A stretch of 64,000 nucleotides of DNA, taken from the IMG/VR virus record IMGVR_UViG_3300045988_147321, one strand, 5' to 3'. This document shows, piece by piece, positions 1 through 64,000 of the stretch (its first letter is position 1; each line of letters starts with the position of its first letter). This stretch comes from a virus. Lineage: Duplodnaviria; Heunggongvirae; Uroviricota; Caudoviricetes. The translations under genes were made by a program, and so were the position numbers. The notes under the pieces are model-generated. The model made no database searches and was not told where the DNA came from. It was given only the letters and a program-made list of their open reading frames with translations.

Positions 1-32
1 CAGTCAACATAAAATCGCGTATAGTCAATGTT

Positions 33-140
33 GATCCCGTTTCAGGCCATGAACGGCGCGGCTTACAGCGATCCGGGATCTTCTTTGGATCTTCCTAGGT
101 TCTCTTTGGGATCTGTTTATTGGATCTATGCTGTGGATAA
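33..140. promoter_or_regulatory. Partial plasmid replication origin (oriR-like): GATC-containing heptamer repeats plus a DnaA box
   Basis: GATC at 70, 77, 88, 110 and 123 inside GGATC heptamers (another at 33); TGTGGATAA DnaA box at 132-140. The window starts inside the origin, so iterons and repA would lie upstream of the window. Confidence 0.45.
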
Positions 141-182
141 GTTGAATAAACCGGCCAACATAGCCGGTTGGAAGGAAGGGTA

Positions 183-575
183 TTATTCTACGCTTTCGAT
201 AAGAAGACCATGTTCATAACATTTAAGCTCATCGCCTTCGTACAGGAATTGGTATCCAATACCACCATTTTCATGGACATTAGGGAATAACTCATAACTC
301 ACTGAAGAGCAAATCACACCAATGCAGCGATCAACGCCTTCTCGTTCTTCAGTGCTGAAAAAATCCTCTTCGGTAAGAACATGAGTACATTGATCATCAG
401 CATAGGTCGGAAATACATGCTCAATGCAATCCGGGTGTTTTAAACCAAGCTGAGCGGCAAGCTCGAAAGCATGACGGTATTGTTCAGATCCTGGCTTGCC
501 AACAGTGATGTGCTCAATTTTGTAGATTGAAGTCGCTTTGTTGATAGTTTGCTTTACTGTTACTTTATCAGACAT
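183..575 (-). CDS. Hypothetical protein, last gene of the leftward operon
   Basis: 130-aa ORF with no recognisable motif; at the P1 upfA position by synteny. Confidence 0.45.
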   Translation of the reverse strand: MSDKVTVKQTINKATSIYKIEHITVGKPGSEQYRHAFELAAQLGLKHPDCIEHVFPTYADDQCTHVLTEEDFFSTEEREGVDRCIGVICSSVSYELFPNVHENGGIGYQFLYEGDELKCYEHGLLIESVE

Positions 576-586
576 AAAAATCCCTT

Positions 587-919
587 TTAGTTACCGCTGA
601 TAGCGCGGTTGTAATCATTAACGTTGCGATTCTTCCTGTTAATCCCCATCAGCATCGTTTCTGTATCGAGGATATACGCTGGCAGATCATCGAAATATTC
701 ACTGCTAAACTCTGGCATTCTGCACATAAATGCACTTTTGGGGGCAGGGTGGTTAACCTTTGTCGGCGTCGGCGTTAAATTCGCTGATCGACTCCCGGAG
801 CAACCGCTGAGTGTCAGCAGGAATGCGCTGGCGAACATTACCCGCCGCAACCAGTTGTTTCTGAACTTCAGCTTTTCGTTCCATTTGCCTGTCAGCATAT
901 TTGGCTTGTTCTGATTCAT
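587..919 (-). CDS. Small lipoprotein (lipobox LSGC), o-spanin-like, overlapping the 3' end of the upstream gene
   Basis: Signal peptide ending in the lipobox L-S-G-C, proline-containing mature part, starts inside gene 753-1175 in another frame. Start ambiguous (919, 898 or 838). At the P1 mlp position by synteny. Confidence 0.45.
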   Translation of the reverse strand: MNQNKPNMLTGKWNEKLKFRNNWLRRVMFASAFLLTLSGCSGSRSANLTPTPTKVNHPAPKSAFMCRMPEFSSEYFDDLPAYILDTETMLMGINRKNRNVNDYNRAISGN

Positions 920-1175
920 TTTTCACTTCCTGGCTGTGAAAATGTTGCTCTGCTTTGTTCATCGTCTCAATGGTCTGGTTAAGATCCATTATTGACTTAT
1001 CACGTTCCTTAACAGCCTGATCAAGACTGCCAATTTTCTCGATGGCTTGCTTTAGCTGATGACGTTCCCATGCAAACCCAGCACCAACAAGTGCGCAAAT
1101 CAGAACAAGAACACCAGTAGCAGCAAGTTTCTCCTTCAAAGACAAAGCTGTTTTTAACGTAGAAAAGAATGACAT
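753..1175 (-). CDS. N-terminally anchored coiled-coil periplasmic protein, i-spanin-like
   Basis: Start MSFFSTLK preceded by AGGAGG; one N-terminal transmembrane segment followed by a charged coiled-coil region; the lipoprotein gene overlaps its 3' end. At the P1 ppfA position by synteny. Confidence 0.45.
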   Translation of the reverse strand: MSFFSTLKTALSLKEKLAATGVLVLICALVGAGFAWERHQLKQAIEKIGSLDQAVKERDKSIMDLNQTIETMNKAEQHFHSQEVKNESEQAKYADRQMERKAEVQKQLVAAGNVRQRIPADTQRLLRESISEFNADADKG

Positions 1176-1214
1176 GTCTTCCTCCTGAAGAAAAATTATC
1201 AATGAAGTCCTTTG

Positions 1215-2003
1215 TTACTGTGCCGCTTTGTTTAATTCATCAAGAACAGAATCAGGAACCAAAGCAGCAACTGCGCTGGCTGTGCTGGCCTTATTTGCTG
1301 ATGCTTCCGCAAGCGCAGTACCGATAGCATGGTTATAAGCAGTTATGGCTACATTGGCGCTTTCATTCGCTCGTTCATACTGCTGTTGTAACGCAGTTGT
1401 GGGCGCTGTTGTCTGGTTGAATACAACCCCAAACTGTTCAGTTGCTACTTTCAGAGATTCAATTTGCTCTTCTGTTAGTGCTGGTGGGGGAGTGGCAGTG
1501 CCGCCGCCTGAACCAGAGCCTGACGAGCTTCCTGAGCCAGTGTTAAGGGTCTGGTTAATCTCCCCCATAGCAGCGACTAAACTTGATGTATTAAGCGCGT
1601 TTACAGCGTCCTCAAGCGATTTAGTAATAGTCACATCACCAATGGCAATAGAGATCGGCAGTTCTGATACTTCTCGCTCATTAGCACGGCAGTAAACATC
1701 CCAACCAATATCGAGTTGAAGCAGCATTGACAGATCTGCATAACCAGCCAACAGGTCCGCGTGCTTAGTTGCCAGTTCTCCAATGTTCGTTAAGCCGGTT
1801 GTGGTTGTTCTGATCGTTGAAACATAGCTGGTAATAGTGTCGGGATAGACAATTGTATCCAGAATTAATCCGGTCAATTCTTCTGCAAGCAGTTTTGCTG
1901 TGTTAGCACTGTTTCGTGCCGATGTTATGGCACCAGGTGTTTTCATCCCACCGGCGGCGGCCAATTTTTTATATGCGGATAACTGGTAGTCTTTTTCCAG
2001 CAT
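1215..2003 (-). CDS. Hypothetical protein with a Gly/Ser-rich linker
   Basis: ORF 1215-2060; internal ATG at 2003 is preceded by AGGAG. SGSGSGGG linker. P1 upfB position. Confidence 0.4.
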   Translation of the reverse strand: MLEKDYQLSAYKKLAAAGGMKTPGAITSARNSANTAKLLAEELTGLILDTIVYPDTITSYVSTIRTTTTGLTNIGELATKHADLLAGYADLSMLLQLDIGWDVYCRANEREVSELPISIAIGDVTITKSLEDAVNALNTSSLVAAMGEINQTLNTGSGSSSGSGSGGGTATPPPALTEEQIESLKVATEQFGVVFNQTTAPTTALQQQYERANESANVAITAYNHAIGTALAEASANKASTASAVAALVPDSVLDELNKAAQ

Positions 2004-5916: not shown

Positions 5917-6581
5917 ATTAGTGTAATATCGCCCCAATGAATCGTGATTTATAGAGCGATTTAGCTGTTAGCCGCGACAGGCGCGGCGGTAAGCATGGCT
6001 GGGCCTAGTCCTCCCAGACAAACCACCGAGTTGCCAGGTTGACCATGCGCCTAAGTGGCAACGCCGAAGTGCGTTACGAGCTTCCAGTTTGCCCATCTTC
6101 GGGTGGGCGTTTTTTCAGGGTTTTCGTCATGGTTAGCGACTTTGCGGCGGTTTAGAAACTGACCATTAAAGTAAATGCAAACGATGATCTGATGATGGTA
6201 GCGGCCTAAGAAACCAGATGCCACGGGGTATGAGTCGTCCCCCGTCAAAAAAATCGACCGCAGAGTGTCCCCGTCTGTGTATTAGGGAACGGGGAGGCAC
6301 AACAGGTAAGGGCGCTGGTGTGATTAACCAGATGAACGAGAAGGGGCCATCTGTTGGTCAGCGTCCTTTCCTGTTGCGTTTTCTTTTCAGCGTAACAGCG
6401 GTGCTTAACAGCACTTTGGGTACAGTTCCACGAATTTACGGGTATATCCCGTCATGCTGAAGGCGCTAATCACGCTGGAAGCCAGGGTTGTGCATCCCCT
6501 GTTACCGAATTGCAGCCAGGGCGCGGTGCGCCGAAAAGCATACGGAGGTGGAAGCCCTCGCCGGAGACGTACCCGGCAAGT

Positions 6582-6738: not shown

Positions 6739-7540
6739 CAACAGGTAAGGGTATTTTGCGACGTCGGAGATCGCCGAGCTTGGCAGAGGGTTCGAATCCC
6801 TACGAAGTACCCTTACCGTTGTGATGAATGCGCAGGCTGATGCGCGAAAGACATTGCAGCTATTGCGGAAAAGAGCTGTTCGGCGGGGCAATTAAACGCC
6901 CGTGAGAGTCTGAAATAACCGCAAGCCGGAGATCAGCACCGGTCATCACAACACAACAGGTAAGGGCATTCTCCCTTATGGGGCTTGGCTTAAATGCATC
7001 GAGTGCTCTTACCGTTGTGATGAAGTGCAGCTCTTTGAAGCAACCAGAAGATAAGCATCTGGCTTCACAACATAAACCGCAGGAACGACCAATAAACGGT
7101 AGTCCGTATGGAGAACACCCCGTTGAGGAAGAGGCCTGGCCGGAACCGTAACCGGCACTACAACGTTGAGAACACTGGCGTAACGGGGTCATATCCCAAT
7201 CTACGAATAAATGTTGCGTTGCAGCGTGACAACCAGTGTTCTCAACATTGTGGTGAATGCACAGGCTGATGTGCCGCAACTACAGTAGTGCGCGCTTTGC
7301 GGGGCTTGCTACAACCCTGTGTCGGAGTTCAGCACCGACCATCACAGTTTGATTCTCTGGCATGAGCATAACGCTGAAATAAGTCCAGTCTGGTGCGGCC
7401 CGATCACTCGCCGTTAGCTCCACGAAACGGAGCACGTAACAGGTAAGAGCATTCTCCTGTAACGGGTTCATATCCCAATCTACAGGTCCACCAGGAATGC
7501 TCTTTCCGTTGCGGTGAATGCGGCTAAGCGCACGCGGGGA
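6739..7540 (+). repeat. Four degenerate copies of a roughly 100-nt hairpin element in an ORF-poor region downstream of the tRNAs
   Basis: Shared modules: AACAGGTAAG(G/A)GCATTCTCC arm, CCGTTG(T/C)G(A/G)TGAATGC tail, GTAACGGGG(T)TCATATCCCAATCTAC loop; long perfect stems; copy 1 contains a tRNA T-arm-like GAGGGTTCGAATCCCT. Confidence 0.5.
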
Positions 7541-7662
7541 AATGGTTATATCTGTCCATTATTTCTCCTTATTTCCCCGTCCACGGTGGATAACCAGCCA
7601 AAGGACACCGGGAGGCACCCGGCACCGCAACCTTATTTCCCAACCAGTAATGAGGTTAATAA

Positions 7663-8088
7663 ATGCTCGGCATTCTCAAAAAGAAATTCCGCAAAGCGGC
7701 TGGCGGAGTCAAGAAGATGGAAAACCGTGATGCGGTGGAAGCGACTGTCTGGGGCGCATATTCCATTGCATACTCTGACGGCACCTGCGATGCGAAAGAA
7801 ATTGCAGTATTGGAAAAAACCATTGCAGCACTTCCTGCCTTTGCGCCGTTCTCCGGTGAAATTGCCCAGATGAGCGCCAATATTCGCGCTCAATATGAAG
7901 CCTCGCCGCGCCGAGCGAATGCCCAGGCTTTACGTGAACTGGCTGACGTGTCTGGAACTAATGATGCGGTAGATGTTCTGTGCCTATGCATTGATATTGC
8001 TGACCAGGATGGCATTGGGGCAGAAGAGCAGGAGCAATTGAAGAAAATTGCCCAGGCTCTTCAATTGCCACTGGAACAGTATATCTGA
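7663..8088 (+). CDS. tciA: TerB-like (tellurite-resistance family) protein
   Basis: 141 aa, helical, acidic C-terminus; TerB-like by composition; position matches P1 tciA. Confidence 0.5.
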   Translation: MLGILKKKFRKAAGGVKKMENRDAVEATVWGAYSIAYSDGTCDAKEIAVLEKTIAALPAFAPFSGEIAQMSANIRAQYEASPRRANAQALRELADVSGTNDAVDVLCLCIDIADQDGIGAEEQEQLKKIAQALQLPLEQYI

Positions 8089-8252
8089 TGGTTATAAAAG
8101 CACGTCTAATTCTGGCTTTGGTTTTTCTCGTGCTATCTGTGCTGGTGGATTTCACCAGCACAATCCTGTCGGTTTTATCCGACGGGGCGTTGGTAGCAGT
8201 AGCTGTAACATTGGTATGGCCGATATTTAAACCAGCCTCGAAGGATCAGTGA
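8088..8252 (+). CDS. Small membrane protein (54 aa), start overlaps the tciA stop
   Basis: MVIKARLILALVFLVLSVLVDF... read directly; not in the ORF track (under 60 aa). Coordinates may be off by 1 because the printed sequence and ORF track disagree by one base near 8041. P1 tciB position. Confidence 0.4.
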   Translation: MVIKARLILALVFLVLSVLVDFTSTILSVLSDGALVAVAVTLVWPIFKPASKDQ

Positions 8253-8359
8253 TGAGCTTCTGGGATTTTGCAGATAAGTATCCAATTGTTCTCATTATCA
8301 TTGTTGCCATAGTTGTAGGCGGTATTGTTAGCGCCATTGAAGCACTTAGGAAACAGTAA
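8252..8359 (+). CDS. Small membrane peptide (35 aa), start overlaps the upstream stop
   Basis: MSFWDFADKYPIVLIIIVAIVVGGIVSAIEALRKQ; not in the ORF track. P1 tciC position. Confidence 0.4.
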   Translation: MSFWDFADKYPIVLIIIVAIVVGGIVSAIEALRKQ

Positions 8360-31501: not shown

Positions 31502-31954
31502 ATGTTACTTAACTGGCAGGGACGCCACTTCATGGAAATAAATCACTCACGAATAACATCGTACGAGATTGCGGATTACATGATCCGCACTAAATCTCTT
31601 CTATCAGCGAAAGAACTCGCAGCAATTCTTGAAAAGGAATACCCGCATCTGGATGTCGATAAGCGCGATGTTTATCTGCGCTTAAAGGCTATCGCTGTGT
31701 CTAAGTATTCGTCTGTTTTGATTGATGACAGTACACGCCCACGTAGATTTCAGATCCACTCTCTGAATCCTGAATTCTTTCGCCGTAGCCGCGCTCCGCG
31801 CCGGTTTGATGAAAAACTCCAGAACGAACTCTATATGACGCAGGACGAAAAGGAACGCCGGGAGCACCAGCCTTGGGTAATGGCGCGTCAACTTTTCAAT
31901 AAGGTGGCCCGTCAGCACCGTCATTACGGTAATGCCACATCCGCACGTATCTGA
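31502..31954 (+). CDS. lpa: Late promoter activator-like protein
   Basis: 150 aa (or start at 31532, MEINH); position just upstream of pacA as in P1. Confidence 0.5.
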   Translation: MLLNWQGRHFMEINHSRITSYEIADYMIRTKSLLSAKELAAILEKEYPHLDVDKRDVYLRLKAIAVSKYSSVLIDDSTRPRRFQIHSLNPEFFRRSRAPRRFDEKLQNELYMTQDEKERREHQPWVMARQLFNKVARQHRHYGNATSARI

Positions 31955-32039
31955 TTGATTGCTTGCCCGTTCCGGGCCTTTTGACATGTGACTTTCGTTA
32001 CCCTCGCGTCAAAAAGAGTTTTTACGAAAGGAAGCATAA

Positions 32040-33233
32040 GTGACCTGGGACGATCACAAGAAGAATTTTGCTCGCCTGGCGCGAGATGGTGGTTACACCA
32101 TCGCACAGTATGCCGCCGAGTTTAATCTTAACCCTAATACTGCACGTCGTTATCTCCGTGCCTTCAAAGAAGACACCAGGACAGCGGACAGCCGCAAGCC
32201 AAATAAGCCAGTCAGGAAGCCACTAAAAAGCATGATCATTGATCACTCTAATGATCAACATGCAGGTGATCACATTGTGGCTGAAATAGCGGAAAAACAA
32301 AGGGTTAATGCCGTTGTCAGTGCCGCAGTCGAGAATGCGAAGCGCCAAAATAAGCGCATAAATGATCGTTCTGATGATCATGACGTGATCACCCGCGCCC
32401 ACCGGACCTTACGTGATCGCCTGGAACGCGACACCCTGGATGATGATGGTGAACGCTTTGAATTCGAAGCTGGCGATTACCTGATAGATAACGTTGAAGC
32501 GCGGAAGGCTGCGCGCGCTATGTTGCGTCGGTCCGGGGCCGATGTTCTGGAAACCACTCTTCTGGAAAAGTCTCTTTCTCATCTCCTTATGCTGGAGAAT
32601 GCCAGGGATACGTGTATTCGTCTGGTGCAGGAAATGCGCGATCAGCAAAAAGACGATGATGAAGGGACTCCGCCTGAATATCGTATCGCGAGCATGCTAA
32701 ACAGCTGTTCCGCGCAGATAAGCAGCCTGATCAACACCATTTACAGCATCCGGAATAACTATCGAAAAGAAAGCCGGGAGGCGGAAAAGCACGCTTTATC
32801 TATGGGGCAAGCTGGCATTGTTAAGCTGGCATACGAACGAAAGCGTGAAAATAACTGGTCAGTGCTGGAAGCAGCTGAATTCATCGAGGCGCATGGCGGA
32901 AAAGTGCCGCCCCTGATGCTGGAGCAAATCAAAGCCGATCTGCGTGCTCCTAAGACCAATACCGATGATGAGGAAAGGCAAACAGCCGTCGGTGGCCCTT
33001 CTCTTGAAGATCTGGACAAAGTTGCGCGAGAACGGGCCGCCAACCGCCGCGCCGATGCCGCATTGTGGATTGAGCAGCGTAGGGAAGAAATCGCCGATAT
33101 CGTTGATACAGGCGGTTATGGAGATGTTGATACTGAAGGTGTATCAAACGACCCATGGCTGGAACAAGACCTGGACGAAGACGAGGAGGAAGACGAAGAA
33201 GTTACCCGCAAGCTATACGGGGATGATGATTAA
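32040..33233 (+). CDS. pacA: Terminase small subunit with the pac site inside its coding sequence
   Basis: 397 aa; N-terminal HTH-like region, acidic C-terminus; size and position match P1 PacA. Confidence 0.75.
32233..32391 (+). promoter_or_regulatory. pac packaging site: 4 + 3 TGATC(A/G) hexamers carrying Dam GATC sites
   Basis: TGATCA at 32233, 32240, 32252, 32267 and TGATCG/TGATCA at 32363, 32375, 32386. Confidence 0.7.
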
Positions 33234-34717
33234 TGGCCAGAAGTTGCGTAACGGATCCACGTTGGCGCGAGCTGGTGGCGCTATATCGTTATGACTGGAT
33301 TGCTGCCGCTGATGTTTTGTTCGGCAAAACACCTACCTGGCAGCAGGATCTGATTATTGAGTCTGTGCAGGAACAGGGCAGCAAGACATCTGTTTCGTCT
33401 GGTCACGGTACCGGGAAATCAGACATGACTTCTATCATGATCATGTTGTTCATAATCATGTATCCCGGTGCCCGCGCCATTATCGTTGCGAACAAAATTC
33501 AGCAGGTAATGACCGGTATATTCAAGTACATCAAGATAAACTGGGCTACTGCCACCAGCCGTTTTCCATGGCTTGCTGATTATTTTGTTCTGACAGAAAC
33601 CGCTTTCTATGAGGTTACTGGTAAAGGTGTATGGACTGTAGTACCGAAGGGCTTTCGTCTGGGAAGTGAAGAAGCTCTCGCCGGTGAACACGCAGATCAT
33701 CTTCTGTATATTATCGATGAAGCCTCCGGTGTCAGTGATAGAGCTTTCGGTATCATCACCGGTGCTCTTACCGGACAGGATAACCGCATCTTATTACTGT
33801 CACAGCCTACACGCCCAAGCGGCTATTTCTACGATACTCACCATAAACTGGCCAAGCGTCCTGGTAACCCTGATGGCGTTTATACGGCGATCACGCTTAA
33901 CAGTGAGGAATCACCGCTGGTAACGCCAGCATTTATCAAAATGAAGCTGGCGGAGTACGGCGGGCGTGATAACCCTATGTACATGATTAAGGTACGCGGA
34001 CTATTCCCTAAATCACAGGATGGCTTCCTTCTTGGACGTGATGAGGTTGAACGTGCGACGCGGCGGAAAGTCAAGATTGCCAAAGGATGGGGCTGGCTTG
34101 CATGTGTGGACGTTGCTGGTGGTACGGGACGGGATAAGTCCGTTATCAATATCATGATGGTGTCCGGCCAGAGAAATAAACGCCGTGTAATCAACTATCG
34201 AATGCTGGAATACACAGACGTTACAGAAACGCAGCTTGCCGCCAAAATTTTCGCAGAATGTAATCCTGAGCGATTCCCAAATATCACCATAGCGATAGAC
34301 GGCGATGGGCTGGGTAAAGCAACGGCGGATCTGATGTACGAGTATTATGGTATTACCGTACAGCGTATACGCTGGGGTAAAAAGATGCATAGCCGTGAAG
34401 ATAAGAGCCTGTACTTTGATAAACGTGCTTATGCCAACGTTCAAGCCGCAGAGGCCGTAAAATCAGGTCGTATGAGACTGGATAAGGGTAATGAAACTAT
34501 TGAGGAAGCGTCGAAAATCCCTGTAGGGATTAACTCCGCCGGTCAATGGAAGGTGATGAGTAAGGAGGATATGAAGAAAAAACTCAACCTGCACTCACCA
34601 GACCATTGGGATACATATTGTTTCGCTATGCTGGCGGATTATGTTCCCCAGGATGAAGTGCTTAGCGTCGAAGAAGAAGCGCAGGTTGATGAAGCTCTGG
34701 CATGGCTTAATGAATAA
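33233..34717 (+). CDS. pacB: Terminase large subunit
   Basis: 494 aa; Walker A GHGTGKS, Walker [11 protein letters not shown]-terminal nuclease-like domain. Confidence 0.8.
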
Positions 34718-34741
34718 CTCATTGACCATGCCGGATGGAAA

Positions 34742-35593
34742 CTATTGCGCGCTTTCGGGGTTGTCGTTTACTGGCTGCCCCTTCTTAGTTTTACGGCTGC
34801 GCGTAACTGATGCGGCTGATTTGACCTTTTTCTCTTCGCGAGTGATGGCAATTTGTTTTTTTACATTTTCAATATCTGCCAGGCGATATATTTTTGCCTG
34901 CGGCCAGCGGTCGCAGATGATCGGTTCTATAGAGTCATAAAGGCTAAATTTTGCTTTCTCGAATTCACCGTTGATGATAATTCCATCACGGAGAGTTTCA
35001 TCGCAGATAAACACACCACATAGCGGCACATGGTAACTAACTGATTTACCATCATTGTAGTTAGGGCTACTAGAAATGTAATGGACGCGCAGCATTGTTT
35101 CGCTAAAGCCGTGTACGCGCATACGGAATTTTTCATCCTCCGGGTACTGCTTCATTAGCTCTTTTGTTGCTTCCAGGTTCTCTATGTATTTCGCACTGTG
35201 CTCATTGATCCCTGCGCTTTTCTGGATGCGAATGTCCTTATCAATCAGATGAATAATGCGGCCAGCGGTCATGTTGACGCTGTTCACAGCTTCTGTCTGA
35301 TAAGTCGTAACCTTACGCACACCGCGAAGGATGTTAGGCACTGGATATAAAATAGTCTTTGGGATATTGAGGTCTGGGTACTGTTCCAGTTCCCGCGCCA
35401 TTAAAGTCCATTTATCAATTTCAGCCTGAATGCTGTCAGTTTCTTTGAACGGCAGAACGACAACCGGGCGTACAGGACGACCGTCGCTGGCGGCATCAAC
35501 GTGTTGGGCGCGTGCAACAGCTTTTTTTAGAAAGAGATCCCTGAAGCTGACGAACTCCTGGTACAGTTGTTCGCCGTAGACATAATTTATCAT
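34742..35593 (-). CDS. c1: C1 repressor of lytic functions
   Basis: 283 aa starting MINYVYGEQLYQEF, matching P1 C1 as I recall it. Confidence 0.85.
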   Translation of the reverse strand: MINYVYGEQLYQEFVSFRDLFLKKAVARAQHVDAASDGRPVRPVVVLPFKETDSIQAEIDKWTLMARELEQYPDLNIPKTILYPVPNILRGVRKVTTYQTEAVNSVNMTAGRIIHLIDKDIRIQKSAGINEHSAKYIENLEATKELMKQYPEDEKFRMRVHGFSETMLRVHYISSSPNYNDGKSVSYHVPLCGVFICDETLRDGIIINGEFEKAKFSLYDSIEPIICDRWPQAKIYRLADIENVKKQIAITREEKKVKSAASVTRSRKTKKGQPVNDNPESAQ

Positions 35594-35703
35594 TGATCCT
35601 CCTCCAGAATTGACATGGCCAACAACTCACAGCGGATTACACTGGGAGTTGTTGGCCACCATTATAGAAGGATCCAACGAAAATAATAGATTTATTAGTG
35701 CAT

Positions 35704-35913
35704 TTATTGTGAGTCTGGCTGGTTAGTGGCCATGAGATATTCGATTGTGTCAGTGAGATCATCCAGGTCGTCTTGGGTGATGCGGTACTCCTGATTGGAT
35801 ATCTTTGAGTAGTGTTCAGCAATGGCGCGGGCAGCGTCGGTTTCGGCGGGGTCTACAGATAAAGCGTTAGAGCAATGTCTAACGTCGTCGATGGTTGGTG
35901 GAATGAAAGCCAT
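35704..35913 (-). CDS. coi: C1 inactivator
   Basis: 69-aa ORF directly upstream of c1 on the same strand; size and position match P1 Coi. Confidence 0.6.
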   Translation of the reverse strand: MAFIPPTIDDVRHCSNALSVDPAETDAARAIAEHYSKISNQEYRITQDDLDDLTDTIEYLMATNQPDSQ

Positions 35914-36151
35914 AATTATGCCTCACTGTATTGACAACACAGAGCCTGAAGCTCTGACCTACTGTTTCACCCATGATCCATGCTGGGGTAATCTAACAAC
36001 ATTGCGCTGTGTGTAAGATGAGCAATGCATAGCTGTAATGCCGTTGTATAAGGTTTCCCTGTTTGCTCATTTCCTTCTGAGCCGCTCTACAACGCTGAAG
36101 ACACATTAAATAGTGAATCCAAAGTCGTATTACGAAACGGCGGCAAAACTA

Positions 36152-36168
36152 TAATTTATTAGAGCAAT
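36152..36168 (-). promoter_or_regulatory. C1 operator-like 17-mer (inverted)
   Basis: Reverse complement reads ATTGCTCTAATAAATTA, 16/17. Confidence 0.5.
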
Positions 36169-36234
36169 TGTCAAACAACTATGAAAAACAATCCAGTTTT
36201 TGGCTGGTGGAGTGGGATTTTTCTCTCAAAATTT

Positions 36235-36251
36235 ATTGCTCTAATAATTCT
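36235..36251 (+). promoter_or_regulatory. C1 operator-like 17-mer upstream of lox
   Basis: ATTGCTCTAATAATTCT, 15/17. Confidence 0.45.
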
Positions 36252-36294
36252 TGATTTTTATGCGCAGCTGGACGTAAACTCCTCTTCAGACCTA

Positions 36295-36328
36295 ATAACT
36301 TCGTATAGCATATATTATACGAAGTTAT
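36295..36328. other. lox recombination site (loxP-like, spacer variant)
   Basis: ATAACTTCGTATA-GCATATAT-TATACGAAGTTAT: perfect 13-bp inverted arms; spacer differs at one base from the canonical GCATACAT as I recall it. Confidence 0.85.
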
Positions 36329-36517
36329 CTTAAGGGTTATTGAACATGATCAATTTACCTGTAAATCCATACAGTTCAATACCTTATCAGGTCAAATAGT
36401 GATCACTTGATCATTTGATCAAGGTTGCGCTACGTAAAATCTGCGAAATGTTGGCAGTGTTAGTGCTCCAGATTTCGCGTAGCGCACTTAGCACCACCAA
36501 TCAATCAGAGGTGAAAA

Positions 36518-36739
36518 ATGGGATATTCAGCTGCTAAAGTGTCCACTCATCTTGAGCTTGAGAAAAACCGTGGTTACTGGCGGGCAAAAGGGTTTGATCG
36601 TGATAGTTGCCAACTGTCATTATCGCGCGGTGAAGAGAAAATAGAACGCACGCGCGGTCGCTGGCGTTTCTATGACGAGAACCATAAACAGGTAAAGGCA
36701 GAGCCGATCCTGTACACTTTACTTAAAACCATTATCTGA
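36518..36739 (+). CDS. cra: Small protein between lox and cre
   Basis: 73-aa ORF with GAGGTGA Shine-Dalgarno. Confidence 0.5.
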   Translation: MGYSAAKVSTHLELEKNRGYWRAKGFDRDSCQLSLSRGEEKIERTRGRWRFYDENHKQVKAEPILYTLLKTII

Positions 36740-36746
36740 GTGTTAA

Positions 36747-37778
36747 ATGTCCAATTTACTGACCGTACACCAAAATTTGCCTGCATTACCGGTCGATGCA
36801 ACGAGTGATGAGGTTCGCAAGAACCTGATGGACATGTTCAGGGATCGCCAGGCGTTTTCTGAGCATACCTGGAAAATGCTTCTGTCCGTTTGCCGGTCGT
36901 GGGCGGCATGGTGCAAGTTGAATAACCGGAAATGGTTTCCCGCAGAACCTGAAGATGTTCGCGATTATCTTCTATATCTTCAGGCGCGCGGTCTGGCAGT
37001 AAAAACTATCCAGCAACATTTGGGCCAGCTAAACATGCTTCATCGTCGGTCCGGGCTGCCACGACCAAGTGACAGCAATGCTGTTTCACTGGTCATGCGG
37101 CGGATTCGAAAAGAAAACGTTGATGCCGGTGAACGTGCAAAACAGGCATTGGCGTTCGAACGCACTGATTTCGACCAGGTTCGTTCACTCATGGAAAATA
37201 GCGATCGCTGCCAGGATATACGTAATCTGGCATTTCTTGGGATTGCTTATAATACCCTGCTACGTATAGCAGAAATTGCCAGGATCAGGGTTAAAGATAT
37301 CTCACGTACTGACGGTGGGAGAATGTTAATCCATATTGGCAGAACGAAAACGCTGGTTAGCACCGCAGGTGTAGAGAAGGCACTTAGCCTGGGGGTAACT
37401 AAACTGGTCGAGCGATGGATTTCTGTCTCTGGTGTAGCTGATGATCCGAATAACTACCTGTTTTGCCGGGTCAGAAAAAATGGTGTTGCCGCGCCATCTG
37501 CCACCAGCCAGCTATCAACTCGCGCCCTGGAAGGGATTTTTGAAGCAACTCATCGATTGATTTACGGCGCTAAGGATGACTCTGGTCAGAGATACCTGGC
37601 CTGGTCTGGACACAGTGCCCGTGTCGGAGCAGCGCGAGATATGGCCCGCGCTGGAGTTTCAATACCGGAGATCATGCAAGCTGGTGGCTGGACCAATGTA
37701 AATATTGTCATGAACTATATCCGTAACCTGGATAGTGAAACAGGGGCAATGGTGCGCCTGCTGGAAGATGGCAATTAG
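36747..37778 (+). CDS. cre: Cre tyrosine recombinase
   Basis: 343 aa, MSNLLTVHQNLPALPVDATSDEVRKNLMDMF...; essentially the familiar Cre sequence; C-terminus reads LEDGN. Confidence 0.95.
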   Translation: MSNLLTVHQNLPALPVDATSDEVRKNLMDMFRDRQAFSEHTWKMLLSVCRSWAAWCKLNNRKWFPAEPEDVRDYLLYLQARGLAVKTIQQHLGQLNMLHRRSGLPRPSDSNAVSLVMRRIRKENVDAGERAKQALAFERTDFDQVRSLMENSDRCQDIRNLAFLGIAYNTLLRIAEIARIRVKDISRTDGGRMLIHIGRTKTLVSTAGVEKALSLGVTKLVERWISVSGVADDPNNYLFCRVRKNGVAAPSATSQLSTRALEGIFEATHRLIYGAKDDSGQRYLAWSGHSARVGAARDMARAGVSIPEIMQAGGWTNVNIVMNYIRNLDSETGAMVRLLEDGN

Positions 37779-62094: not shown

Positions 62095-62358
62095 TTACCT
62101 ATTCAACCGACTTTTGGAACCTTCAATAATAAGCCTGCTATTGGCGCTGAAAATAAGAACCATGCAGCTCTGAAGGCTTTCATTCATGTCCTTATATTCC
62201 GCGAGATACATGCCAATAAAGCCAGCAAGTACGGCGGAAATACATTCGGCCAGCAATTTCTTGCATGAAGACTCGTAACGGTTTTCACATAGCCCACTCA
62301 AATACGAATACACCCCACCAAGAAGGGATAACATCACGATATGTACATAAAATGTCAT
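62095..62358 (-). CDS. Small two-segment membrane protein (holin-like)
   Basis: 87-aa ORF; possibly P1 lydC. Confidence 0.35.
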   Translation of the reverse strand: MTFYVHIVMLSLLGGVYSYLSGLCENRYESSCKKLLAECISAVLAGFIGMYLAEYKDMNESLQSCMVLIFSANSRLIIEGSKSRLNR

Positions 62359-62485
62359 TTTTTACCTATACAACAGTAAGTTGAACAACATTTGAGAACG
62401 GTATGCACTTTGTGATTTCCACACACACTGGTTTTGTTAATTAAAACCTGTAGCTTGCAATAAATAACGATAGTGGGCAGAAAAT

Positions 62486-62671
62486 ATGCTAATAGGCTAT
62501 GTACGCATATAGACAAATGAACAAAACACAGCTATGCAGTGAAAAGCACTTGAAAGCGCAGGATGTGAGCTAATTTTTGCGAATAAGGCGAGCAGCAAAA
62601 AAGCTGGGCACCCTGGGTTAAAAAAGGTTCTGCGTATGCTTTCCAGAGGTGATACCCTAGTCTCGGACTAG
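62486..62671 (+). pseudogene. Remnant of a serine DNA invertase gene (Cin/Hin/Gin family), disrupted by in-frame stops and truncated
   Basis: Reads MLIGYVRI*TNEQNTAMQ*KALESAGCELIFANKASSKKAGHPGLKKVLRMLSRGDTLV against Cin MQIGYIRVSTNDQNTDLQRNALNCAGCELIFEDK...; TAG replaces the catalytic Ser codon, TGA replaces an Arg codon. Confidence 0.6.
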
Positions 62672-62793
62672 GGACAACATTTCGAGAACAGTTTTCATTA
62701 GCGGTCAGCAGGCGCTAGATACATCGAATTGATGTGCCGCGCGATAAATGTACCTATTCTATCAAGATAAATTACACCGACGCGGCATTAGAA

Positions 62794-63366
62794 TTACAGC
62801 TCAGATTGAGTTTGGCGCTTCTCTACAGGATGATAACGATAAATCGTCGATACACCGATATCGTAAATAATTGCCAACTGTTTCCTGCTGTAGCCATTTT
62901 CGATCAACCTCGCTATTTGCTCATGTTGTTCTTTTGTCAACTTCGGGCGACGTCCGCCAATGCGTCCCTGTTCGCGTGCAGCTGCCAGTCCGGCCAGTGT
63001 TCTCTCAACAATTAATTCACGTTCCATTTCTGCTAAAGCACCCATGACATGAAAAAAGAAACGCCCCATGGGTGTTGATGTGTCAATACTGTCTGTCAGA
63101 CTACGGAAATTAACACCTTTTTCCCGCAACTCCTCTATAAGCGTGATAAGGTGTTTCATACTTCTGCCAAGCCTATCCAGCTTCCAGACAACCAGCGTAT
63201 CTCCTTCTGATAACGTTCTGAGCAGCTTTTTCAAGCCTGGTCTGGCTGACTTTGTTCCGCTTATTTTATCTTCAAAAATCAGTTCACATCCTGCGCAGTT
63301 CAGTGCATTTCTTTGTAAATCTGTGTTTTGGTCATTTGTTGACACACGAATGTAGCCAATTTGCAT
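62794..63366 (-). CDS. cin: Serine DNA invertase
   Basis: 190 aa from MQIGYIRVSTNDQ; catalytic Ser and C-terminal HTH; adjacent to tail-fibre cassettes. Confidence 0.85.
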   Translation of the reverse strand: MQIGYIRVSTNDQNTDLQRNALNCAGCELIFEDKISGTKSARPGLKKLLRTLSEGDTLVVWKLDRLGRSMKHLITLIEELREKGVNFRSLTDSIDTSTPMGRFFFHVMGALAEMERELIVERTLAGLAAAREQGRIGGRRPKLTKEQHEQIARLIENGYSRKQLAIIYDIGVSTIYRYHPVEKRQTQSEL

Positions 63367-63415
63367 GAAAAACAACCTCTTTGTTTAGTTAAAAATACAT
63401 CGTTGGTATAGGTAG

Positions 63416-63441
63416 GGATTAAGACTAAAACGTTGGTTTGG
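63416..63441. other. Candidate invertase crossover (cix-like) site
   Basis: AAGACTAAAACGTTGGTTTGGGGGAA with a core AAACC-N-GGTTT-like dyad (as its reverse complement); lies at the start of the variable cassette. Confidence 0.4.
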
Positions 63442-63899
63442 GGGAAGGCTCAGCATTGCCTGTTGGCGTACCTGTTCCGTGGCCCTCAGCCACTCCGCCA
63501 ACGGGGTGGCTGAAATGTAACGGAGCAGCATTTTCTTCTGAAAAGTACCCAAATCTGGCAAAGGCTTACCCTACTAATAAATTGCCGGATTTACGCGGTG
63601 AATTTATTCGTGGCTGGGATGACGGACGTGGTGTGGATGCCGGGCGACAATTATTATCTTCACAGGGGGATGCAATAAGAAATATTGAGGGGTTCGCAGA
63701 TGGCGGGATTGGCATGTCTTTTGATGCAATCAGAGGGGCTTTTTATGATGCAGGAACACGATCTGCGAGAATGCCGAATAACACAACTGATATAGGCAAA
63801 ACCGATGACCTTGGATTCGACGCCTCTCGTGTCGTGCCAACAGCTAATGAAAACCGTCCTCGTAATATTGCCTTTAATTATATCGTAAGGGCGGCATAA
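63438..63899 (+). CDS. Tail-fibre C-terminal variable cassette (promoterless alternative 3' exon)
   Basis: 153-aa ORF starting right at the crossover site, GEGSALPVGVPVPWP...; Gly-rich receptor-binding-like sequence. Confidence 0.5.
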   Translation: MGEGSALPVGVPVPWPSATPPTGWLKCNGAAFSSEKYPNLAKAYPTNKLPDLRGEFIRGWDDGRGVDAGRQLLSSQGDAIRNIEGFADGGIGMSFDAIRGAFYDAGTRSARMPNNTTDIGKTDDLGFDASRVVPTANENRPRNIAFNYIVRAA

Positions 63900-63921
63900 A
63901 AACGTTGGTTTGGGGGAAGGC
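63896..63921. other. Second cix-like crossover site
   Basis: GGCATAAAAACGTTGGTTTGGGGGAA; near-identical to the site at 63416. Confidence 0.4.
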
Positions 63922-64000
63922 TCTGCACTGCCTGTTGGTGTGCCCGTTCCGTGGCCCTTAGAAACACCACCAACGGGCTGGCTAAAATGCAATGGTGCAG
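63922..64000 (+). CDS. Start of a second tail-fibre variable cassette (runs off the window)
   Basis: Encodes GEGSALPVGVPVPWPLETPPTGWLKCNGA, about 85% identical in DNA to the start of the first cassette. Confidence 0.4.

Follow-up and report, generated by a model that had tools for sequence, protein, structure and literature searches.

Phage P1 carries beside lydC the gene cin, which encodes an intact serine DNA invertase of 186 amino acids with both a Resolvase and an HTH_7 domain, and which is transcribed towards cixL and the C segment, its 3' end overlapping cixL. In p15B of E. coli 15T-, by contrast, inversion is the work of Min, which is reportedly a Pin-like system that was substituted for a Cin-like one, the sites of substitution having been mapped between 1990 and 1992. 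The later of these studies is said to describe Min as a Cin-like system substituted by Pin/e14-like sequences, and p15B is said to have six mix sites and an enhancer of Min's own. The lydC-cin-S region is known as a highly variable hot spot (PMC9603915); one P1-like plasmid carries a reverse-oriented Min-like invertase with 98.5% amino acid identity to p15B Min, and partial or truncated cin genes occur in two other P1-like plasmids (PMC6906374).

The window, that is, the whole 64,000-nt stretch of Caudoviricetes DNA analysed here (IMG/VR record IMGVR_UViG_3300045988_147321), contains a pseudogene, psi-cin, at 62486..62665 on the plus strand, which corresponds to codons 1-59/60 of P1-type cin according to translation, BLASTP, megablast, Pfam, and codon alignment. 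The translation of 62486-62680 on this strand, MLIGYVRI-stop-TNEQNTAMQ-stop-KALESAGCELIFANKASSKKAGHPGLKKVLRMLSRGDTLVSD-stop, is that of a serine DNA invertase N-terminus. An earlier note made from the bare sequence had described an in-frame remnant reading like the first 60 codons of a Cin/Hin-type invertase, and this description is borne out by BLASTP against the neighbouring full-length invertase (37/59 identities, 63%, E=7e-26), by a Pfam match to the Resolvase family (PF00239), and by a megablast match to P1 (E=3e-90). The TAG that the same note had placed at the catalytic serine and the TGA that it had placed at an arginine are both confirmed by the translation and by alignment to intact relatives. 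Codon 9 (62510..62512), which is TCA in P1, P7, D6, and SJ46, specifies the catalytic serine of the YVRVSTNEQ motif (YxRVSTxxQ), a residue that is also serine in Min and PinE; codon 19 (62540..62542) is CGA in cin genes, and an arginine occupies this position in every intact relative compared (Cin, Min, and Pin).

The similarity does end abruptly, as had been noticed, although not near 62671: homology stops at 62662-62665, after the residues GDTLV at codon 59/60, and the last three codons of the relic frame, TCG GAC TAG, are junction sequence. Resolvase is the only Pfam family matched (37.6 bits, E=2.8e-9, above the cut-off of 23.3 bits even when both stops are masked). As only profile positions 2-68 of 145 are matched, the catalytic domain, whose full size in PF00239 is about 135-145 residues, is incomplete. 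The C-terminal DNA-binding domain HTH_7 (PF02796), which is present in both the neighbour and P1 Cin, is absent, and the frame is broken by two in-frame stops. As far as sequence can tell, the relic has none of the features examined that characterize a functional serine DNA invertase of the Din family (Cin, Gin, Hin, Pin, and Min).

Of the named cin, pin, and min genes aligned with the relic, P1 cin (AF234172, nt 31660-32220) is the closest. Over 177 coding nucleotides, the relic shares 157 with P1 cin (88.7%), 153 with P7 cin, and 148 with D6 cin, compared with 118 (66.7%) for the min gene of the window and 117 for e14 pinE, which is thus related to the relic only at the level of the family; at the DNA level, none of the other invertase genes compared comes as near to the relic as cin does. 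When 62360-62800 is compared with phage genomes by megablast, 62397-62662 aligns to P1 nt 31570-31836 at 89.5% identity, an interval that in P1 covers the first 177 nt of cin as well as its ribosome-binding site and predicted promoters, and blastn carries the match left to 62372, so that about 90-115 nt of the cin upstream region is included. The relic also keeps the native place and orientation of cin, diverging from lydC and having the same neighbours (LydC, LydA, LydB, and Hdf) as in P1. Because of this DNA similarity (157/177 with P1 cin against 118/177 with the neighbour) and of its position beside lydC with the cin upstream region, the relic is the true orthologue of cin, standing where cin belongs and facing the same way.

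The intact gene that faces the relic (62794..63366, minus strand) encodes 190 amino acids with both a Resolvase (E=2e-51) and an HTH_7 (E=3e-15) domain. It had been called cin, a name that does not hold: the protein is 81% identical to e14 PinE and 74% identical to P1 Cin, and its exact sequence, present on at least 1000 contigs, belongs to the UniRef100 cluster Q05517_ECOLX. An invertase locus in a chromosomal prophage aligns to 62727-63447 at 87%, the 3' flank included. With its two domains intact, its greater nearness to Pin than to Cin, and its 5' end lying by a crossover site, the neighbour is to be classed as a Min/Pin-type invertase and not as cin, and a role as recombinase is predicted for it. 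The relic had also been placed upstream of cin; since the two genes converge tail-to-tail, it instead lies downstream of the neighbour, at its 3' end. A weak terminator-like site directly follows the min stop codon (62788-62774).

The 5' end of min adjoins a crossover-type repeat, beyond which tail-fibre C-terminal cassettes begin. The first crossover (mix-like) site of this invertible tail-fibre region was delimited at 63417..63446 from repeat and core; the core AAACGTTGGTTTGG occurs in the window at 63428 and 63900, the core of a second copy of the site spanning 63900-63913, and a 102-nt direct repeat occupies 63427-63528 and 63899-64000. In the phages vB_EcoM-813R1 and 673R5, annotation splits the min-type invertase into an overlapping pair, Hin1 and Hin2, and 673R5 additionally has single-base deletions in A-runs of the stub; both the split and these deletions look like homopolymer sequencing errors.

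The lydC-cin intergenic region is kept at 62372..62485 (plus strand), colinear with P1 nt 31545-31659, with a decayed cin promoter and ribosome-binding region, and 62372-62662 forms a single blastn alignment with P1 at 87.3%. The P1 annotation places two predicted promoters, P1cin and P2cin, in this intergenic region. In the window, the -10 hexamer of P1cin has changed from TAAAAT to TAAAAC, losing its final T, one T is missing from the P1cin spacer, and the P2cin hexamers are not conserved. A sigma-70 scan of 62300-63460 found no promoter-like site, and a live promoter or an antisense start at the relic was rejected on this empty scan together with the mutated P1cin hexamer. A known RNA was likewise rejected, Rfam returning no family at E<=1 in 62300-62850. 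The equivalent of the P1 recombinational enhancer (cin nt 19-90; nt 31678-31749 of the P1 record) lies within the relic at 62504..62575 (plus strand) and is identical to P1 at 62 of 72 positions (86%), with mismatches counted from the alignment. The P1 annotation gives the same enhancer interval as 83% identical to p15B X62121 nt 6463..6533, which by geometry falls inside min, so that the equivalent in the relic is no less similar to P1 than the listed min match. A crude pattern scan of the enhancer equivalents for Fis sites was uninformative.

At the breakpoint stands a palindrome, CCCTAGTC-tcg-GACTAGGG (62655..62673), whose left arm CCCTAGTC is the last 8 nt of cin homology and whose right arm GACTAGGG is its exact inverted copy, giving perfect 8-bp arms around a 3-nt loop. 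The palindrome is unique in the window, and the hairpin has a folding energy of -7.1 kcal/mol (z = -2.8; 3 of 200 shuffles fold equally well); in three sister copies, one arm base is changed, from A to G at 62667. It is possible that this palindrome is the scar of a template switch. A function as terminator of min was considered for the hairpin and dismissed because no T-run follows it on either strand, and the weak terminator-like site after the min stop codon lies elsewhere. The junction was also compared by eye with a mix site as a potential quasi-crossover site, and the 12 matches in 30 positions were unconvincing.

The spacer from the relic to the min stop codon (62666..62793) is of foreign origin. 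Its part at 62727-62793 is the 3' flank that accompanies Min-like invertases in chromosomal prophages, as the alignment to the chromosomal locus indicates. The part at 62675-62710 forms an inverted repeat (I1) with the 3' end of a tail-fibre cassette at 63835-63870 and reads LTANENCSRNV on the minus strand; because of this 81% reverse complementarity and this reading, it appears to be a stranded stub of a cassette 3' end, caught between the relic and the min stop codon. A search for the donor of the 64 nt at 62663-62726 found this sequence only in p15B-type elements.

How far the foreign sequence extends is seen in the complete sister plasmid p886Rt_IncY, which is 100% identical to the window over the 1061 nt that hold the relic and the invertase and differs from it at 32 of 4641 compared positions. 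In this plasmid, P1 homology can be followed as far as P1 nt 31836 and starts again at P1 nt 37095, continuing at 96.4% for 4.9 kb through the 5', constant part of S, followed by R, gene 16, and bplA. The P1 interval that is replaced measures 5.3 kb and, besides the C segment, takes in the final two thirds of cin and some of the constant region of S, and the stretch without P1 homology that stands in its place measures 6.2 kb and brings in the reversed invertase and eight crossover cores. These cores (AAACGTTGGTTT[G/A]G, at 12069-16517 of the plasmid), of which five lie on one strand and three on the opposite one, form the borders of short C-terminal tail-fibre cassettes. Left of the relic, the LydC-like holin gene (62095-62358, minus strand; 87 aa) shows patchy similarity to P1 lydC, and the P1 annotation lists a 154-nt piece of lydC as 84% identical to p15B (nt 7483..7638) and the adjacent lydA region as 99% identical (nt 7728..8294). 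As lydC is only patchily P1-like while lydA is close, the mosaic boundary would therefore start to the left of the cin stub. The relic is very probably the left scar of a module replacement, by which the p15B lineage of P1-like phage-plasmids exchanged its Cin module for a tail-fibre inversion module of the Pin/Min type.

The junction is widespread: at least 147 PLSDB plasmids have it, as do 171 of 5426 complete E. coli genomes, and about a third of the P1-like plasmids in PLSDB carry it, many of them with resistance genes. Both stops and the junction are the same in all five other p15B-type copies fetched (813R1, pD72-mcr1, 673R5, L009, and L011), three of them being about 1% different from the window and one matching it exactly. 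Further 1-nt deletions within the relic number one in L009 and two in 673R5. In pD72-mcr1, ISApl1 and mcr-1.1 lie inside the invertible tail-fibre cassette region (12474-15269), and the psi-cin/min region is identical to that of the window. Because the stops and the junction are shared by all five copies and the junction is so widespread, the evidence suggests a single old event whose outcome was passed on throughout a large clade.

Changes specific to the relic were polarised by taking the sequences of P1, P7, D6, SJ46, and pHNCF11W as outgroups. There are 17 such substitutions in 177 coding bases, 12 nonsynonymous and 5 synonymous, the former giving V8I, S9stop (two bases), L17M, R19stop, N20K, E32A, D33N, G37S, E41G, and R42H. 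The Cin proteins of P1, P7, and D6 and the SJ46 relic agree with one another at all ten changed positions, and Min and PinE agree with them at nine. With about 131 nonsynonymous and 40 synonymous sites, omega was estimated from these counts at about 0.7 for the relic, compared with 0.05-0.11 for pairs of intact cin genes and 0.03-0.12 when the SJ46 relic is included, a pattern that shows relaxed constraint on the relic, apparently close to neutral decay.

Module replacement has to be weighed against other ways in which such a stub could have arisen or persisted. The earlier note had left duplication and exchange of an inversion module side by side. A partial inverted duplication of the resident invertase that later decayed would account for the convergent arrangement and for the 63% identity over the first 59 residues, but the DNA is 66.7% identical to the resident gene against 88.7% for P1 cin, synonymous sites are saturated in the comparison with min (pS about 0.71), the non-coding sequence upstream of the stub is that of P1 cin, and the place is syntenic with cin. 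Since the relic is nearer to P1 cin and stands in its place, and since the gap in P1 homology has been mapped (P1 nt 31837-37094 in p886Rt_IncY), exchange is upheld and duplication refuted, the probability left to it being negligible. Hardly any probability attaches, either, to the notion that the stops are sequencing or assembly errors in a live or recently live fragment. Phage records of this type do show apparent frameshifts, as in the split min genes of 813R1 and 673R5, but independent plasmids, whose hosts and countries of origin differ, share exactly the same stops and truncation, and the gene is truncated whatever the stops.

A further explanation leaves the origin of the stub aside and proposes that it has been kept for a function in cis, either as a second Fis-dependent enhancer for Min or as the start of antisense transcription into the 3' end of min. 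The match of 62504-62575 to the P1 enhancer, which is as good as that listed for min, and the fact that the stub hardly varies among more than 130 plasmids speak for such a function. The flanking spacer, however, is equally invariant, so that recent common descent explains the near-invariance, and the relic lineage has gathered substitutions within the enhancer equivalent (10 of 72 nt mismatched to P1) no less often than outside it. The lost T of the -10 hexamer and the lack of a sigma-70-like site or an Rfam match in the regions scanned tell the same way, and Min is said to have its own enhancer already. Chiefly because the invariance of the stub is matched by that of the spacer, retention for a cis function is considered highly unlikely, and module replacement followed by decay, which none of the results contradicts, is retained as the explanation of the locus.

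The homologies, boundaries, stops, substitution pattern, and spread described above are results of the tools used, and from them we infer the following order of events. An ancestor of the p15B lineage would have had the P1 arrangement of lydB-lydA-lydC followed by cin, cixL, the C segment, and the tail-fibre gene S. The block from about codon 60 of cin to a point midway in the constant part of S would then have been replaced by a foreign block that carried a Pin/Min-type invertase in the opposite orientation, together with a multi-cassette invertible tail-fibre region with many crossover sites. At the replacement, the stub would have lost about two thirds of the catalytic domain and the whole DNA-binding domain, and it would subsequently have drifted neutrally, acquiring two stop codons, eight amino-acid replacements, and a damaged promoter. 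The stub is predicted to make no recombinase, and inversion in this element would be carried out by Min; the stub may persist only since its deletion brings no benefit and since any further deletion would hit the control region of lydC.

Stubs of cin are also found outside the p15B lineage. In Salmonella phage SJ46 (KU760857), a 74-codon open reading frame at 1599-1860, J46_0037, is annotated as a DNA invertase, and the invertase that faces it lies at 1955-2536. Like the relic, this is a 5' cin stub beside lydC that faces a full-length pin-like invertase on the other strand. Unlike the relic, its first 61 residues are identical to P1 Cin and hold no premature stops, its cin homology extends to about cin nt 260 and includes a 1-nt deletion, and its incoming invertase is a different one, far more divergent than that of the window. 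Because the breakpoint, the lack of stops, and the incoming invertase all differ, the SJ46 stub represents a separate event, or at least one that was separately remodelled and is younger. In E. fergusonii pHNCF11W-130kb, cin is broken at about nt 250 (about 1590-1850 of the plasmid, with no CDS annotated) and is followed by a DapH/DapD/GlmU-type acetyltransferase gene; its cin sequence, at 90.8%, is the closest cin-type sequence to the relic among the loci fetched and aligned. With three types of stub, those of p15B, SJ46, and pHNCF11W, a 5' cin stub is therefore a recurrent outcome of remodelling. A bolder proposal, in which the enhancer equivalent acts as a Fis-bound second enhancer for Min and the first third of cin serves as a preferred landing zone for template switching, is improbable; its landing-zone part draws on the nearby but differing breakpoints in p15B, SJ46, and pHNCF11W and on the 8-bp palindrome at the junction.

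The relic is a clean molecular fossil, recording that host-range modules, each made up of an invertase and its invertible tail-fibre cassettes, are swapped whole between P1-like phage-plasmids and Pin-type prophages. Its junction is a useful lineage marker for a large clade, and annotators should be warned that the intact gene at this place is of the min/pin type and not cin. No new biological question arises from the relic itself, an ordinary scar that is apparently already known from p15B, where it would have been sequenced decades ago. A full-text literature search for an explicit description of the stub returned general statements only, the p15B papers of 1990-92 lying outside its reach.

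The identification with p15B comes from the GenBank annotation of P1, which records P1 31570-31832 as "89 pct identical (1 gap)" to p15B X62121 nt 7147..7408, and P1 37152-38867 as 96% identical to p15B nt 1..1712. The 262-nt p15B piece corresponds to the cin upstream region and about the first 173 nt of cin, and the enhancer match in min lies about 614 nt further on. The identities and spacings so recorded agree with those of the window and of p886Rt_IncY to within 4 nt, and on this annotation and geometry the relic probably corresponds to the p15B arrangement. Among the known systems, then, the locus stands as follows. P1 cin resembles the relic in its position, in its orientation by lydC, and in its homologous upstream region, but it is intact, whereas the relic ends at codon 59/60 with two nonsense codons. 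With respect to the invertible tail-fibre segment, the polarity of the P1 invertase is opposite to that of the neighbour, whereas that of e14 is the same; pinE of e14 is the nearest named relative compared with the neighbour and differs from it in the C-terminal 60 residues and in the 3' flank. The crossover cores of p886Rt_IncY number eight, as against the six mix sites reported for p15B. Judged through the annotation of P1, the Min region of p15B would have the same layout as the window and p886Rt_IncY, with P1 homology resuming in S, R, and gene 16, and no difference between p15B and the window was detected at this locus.
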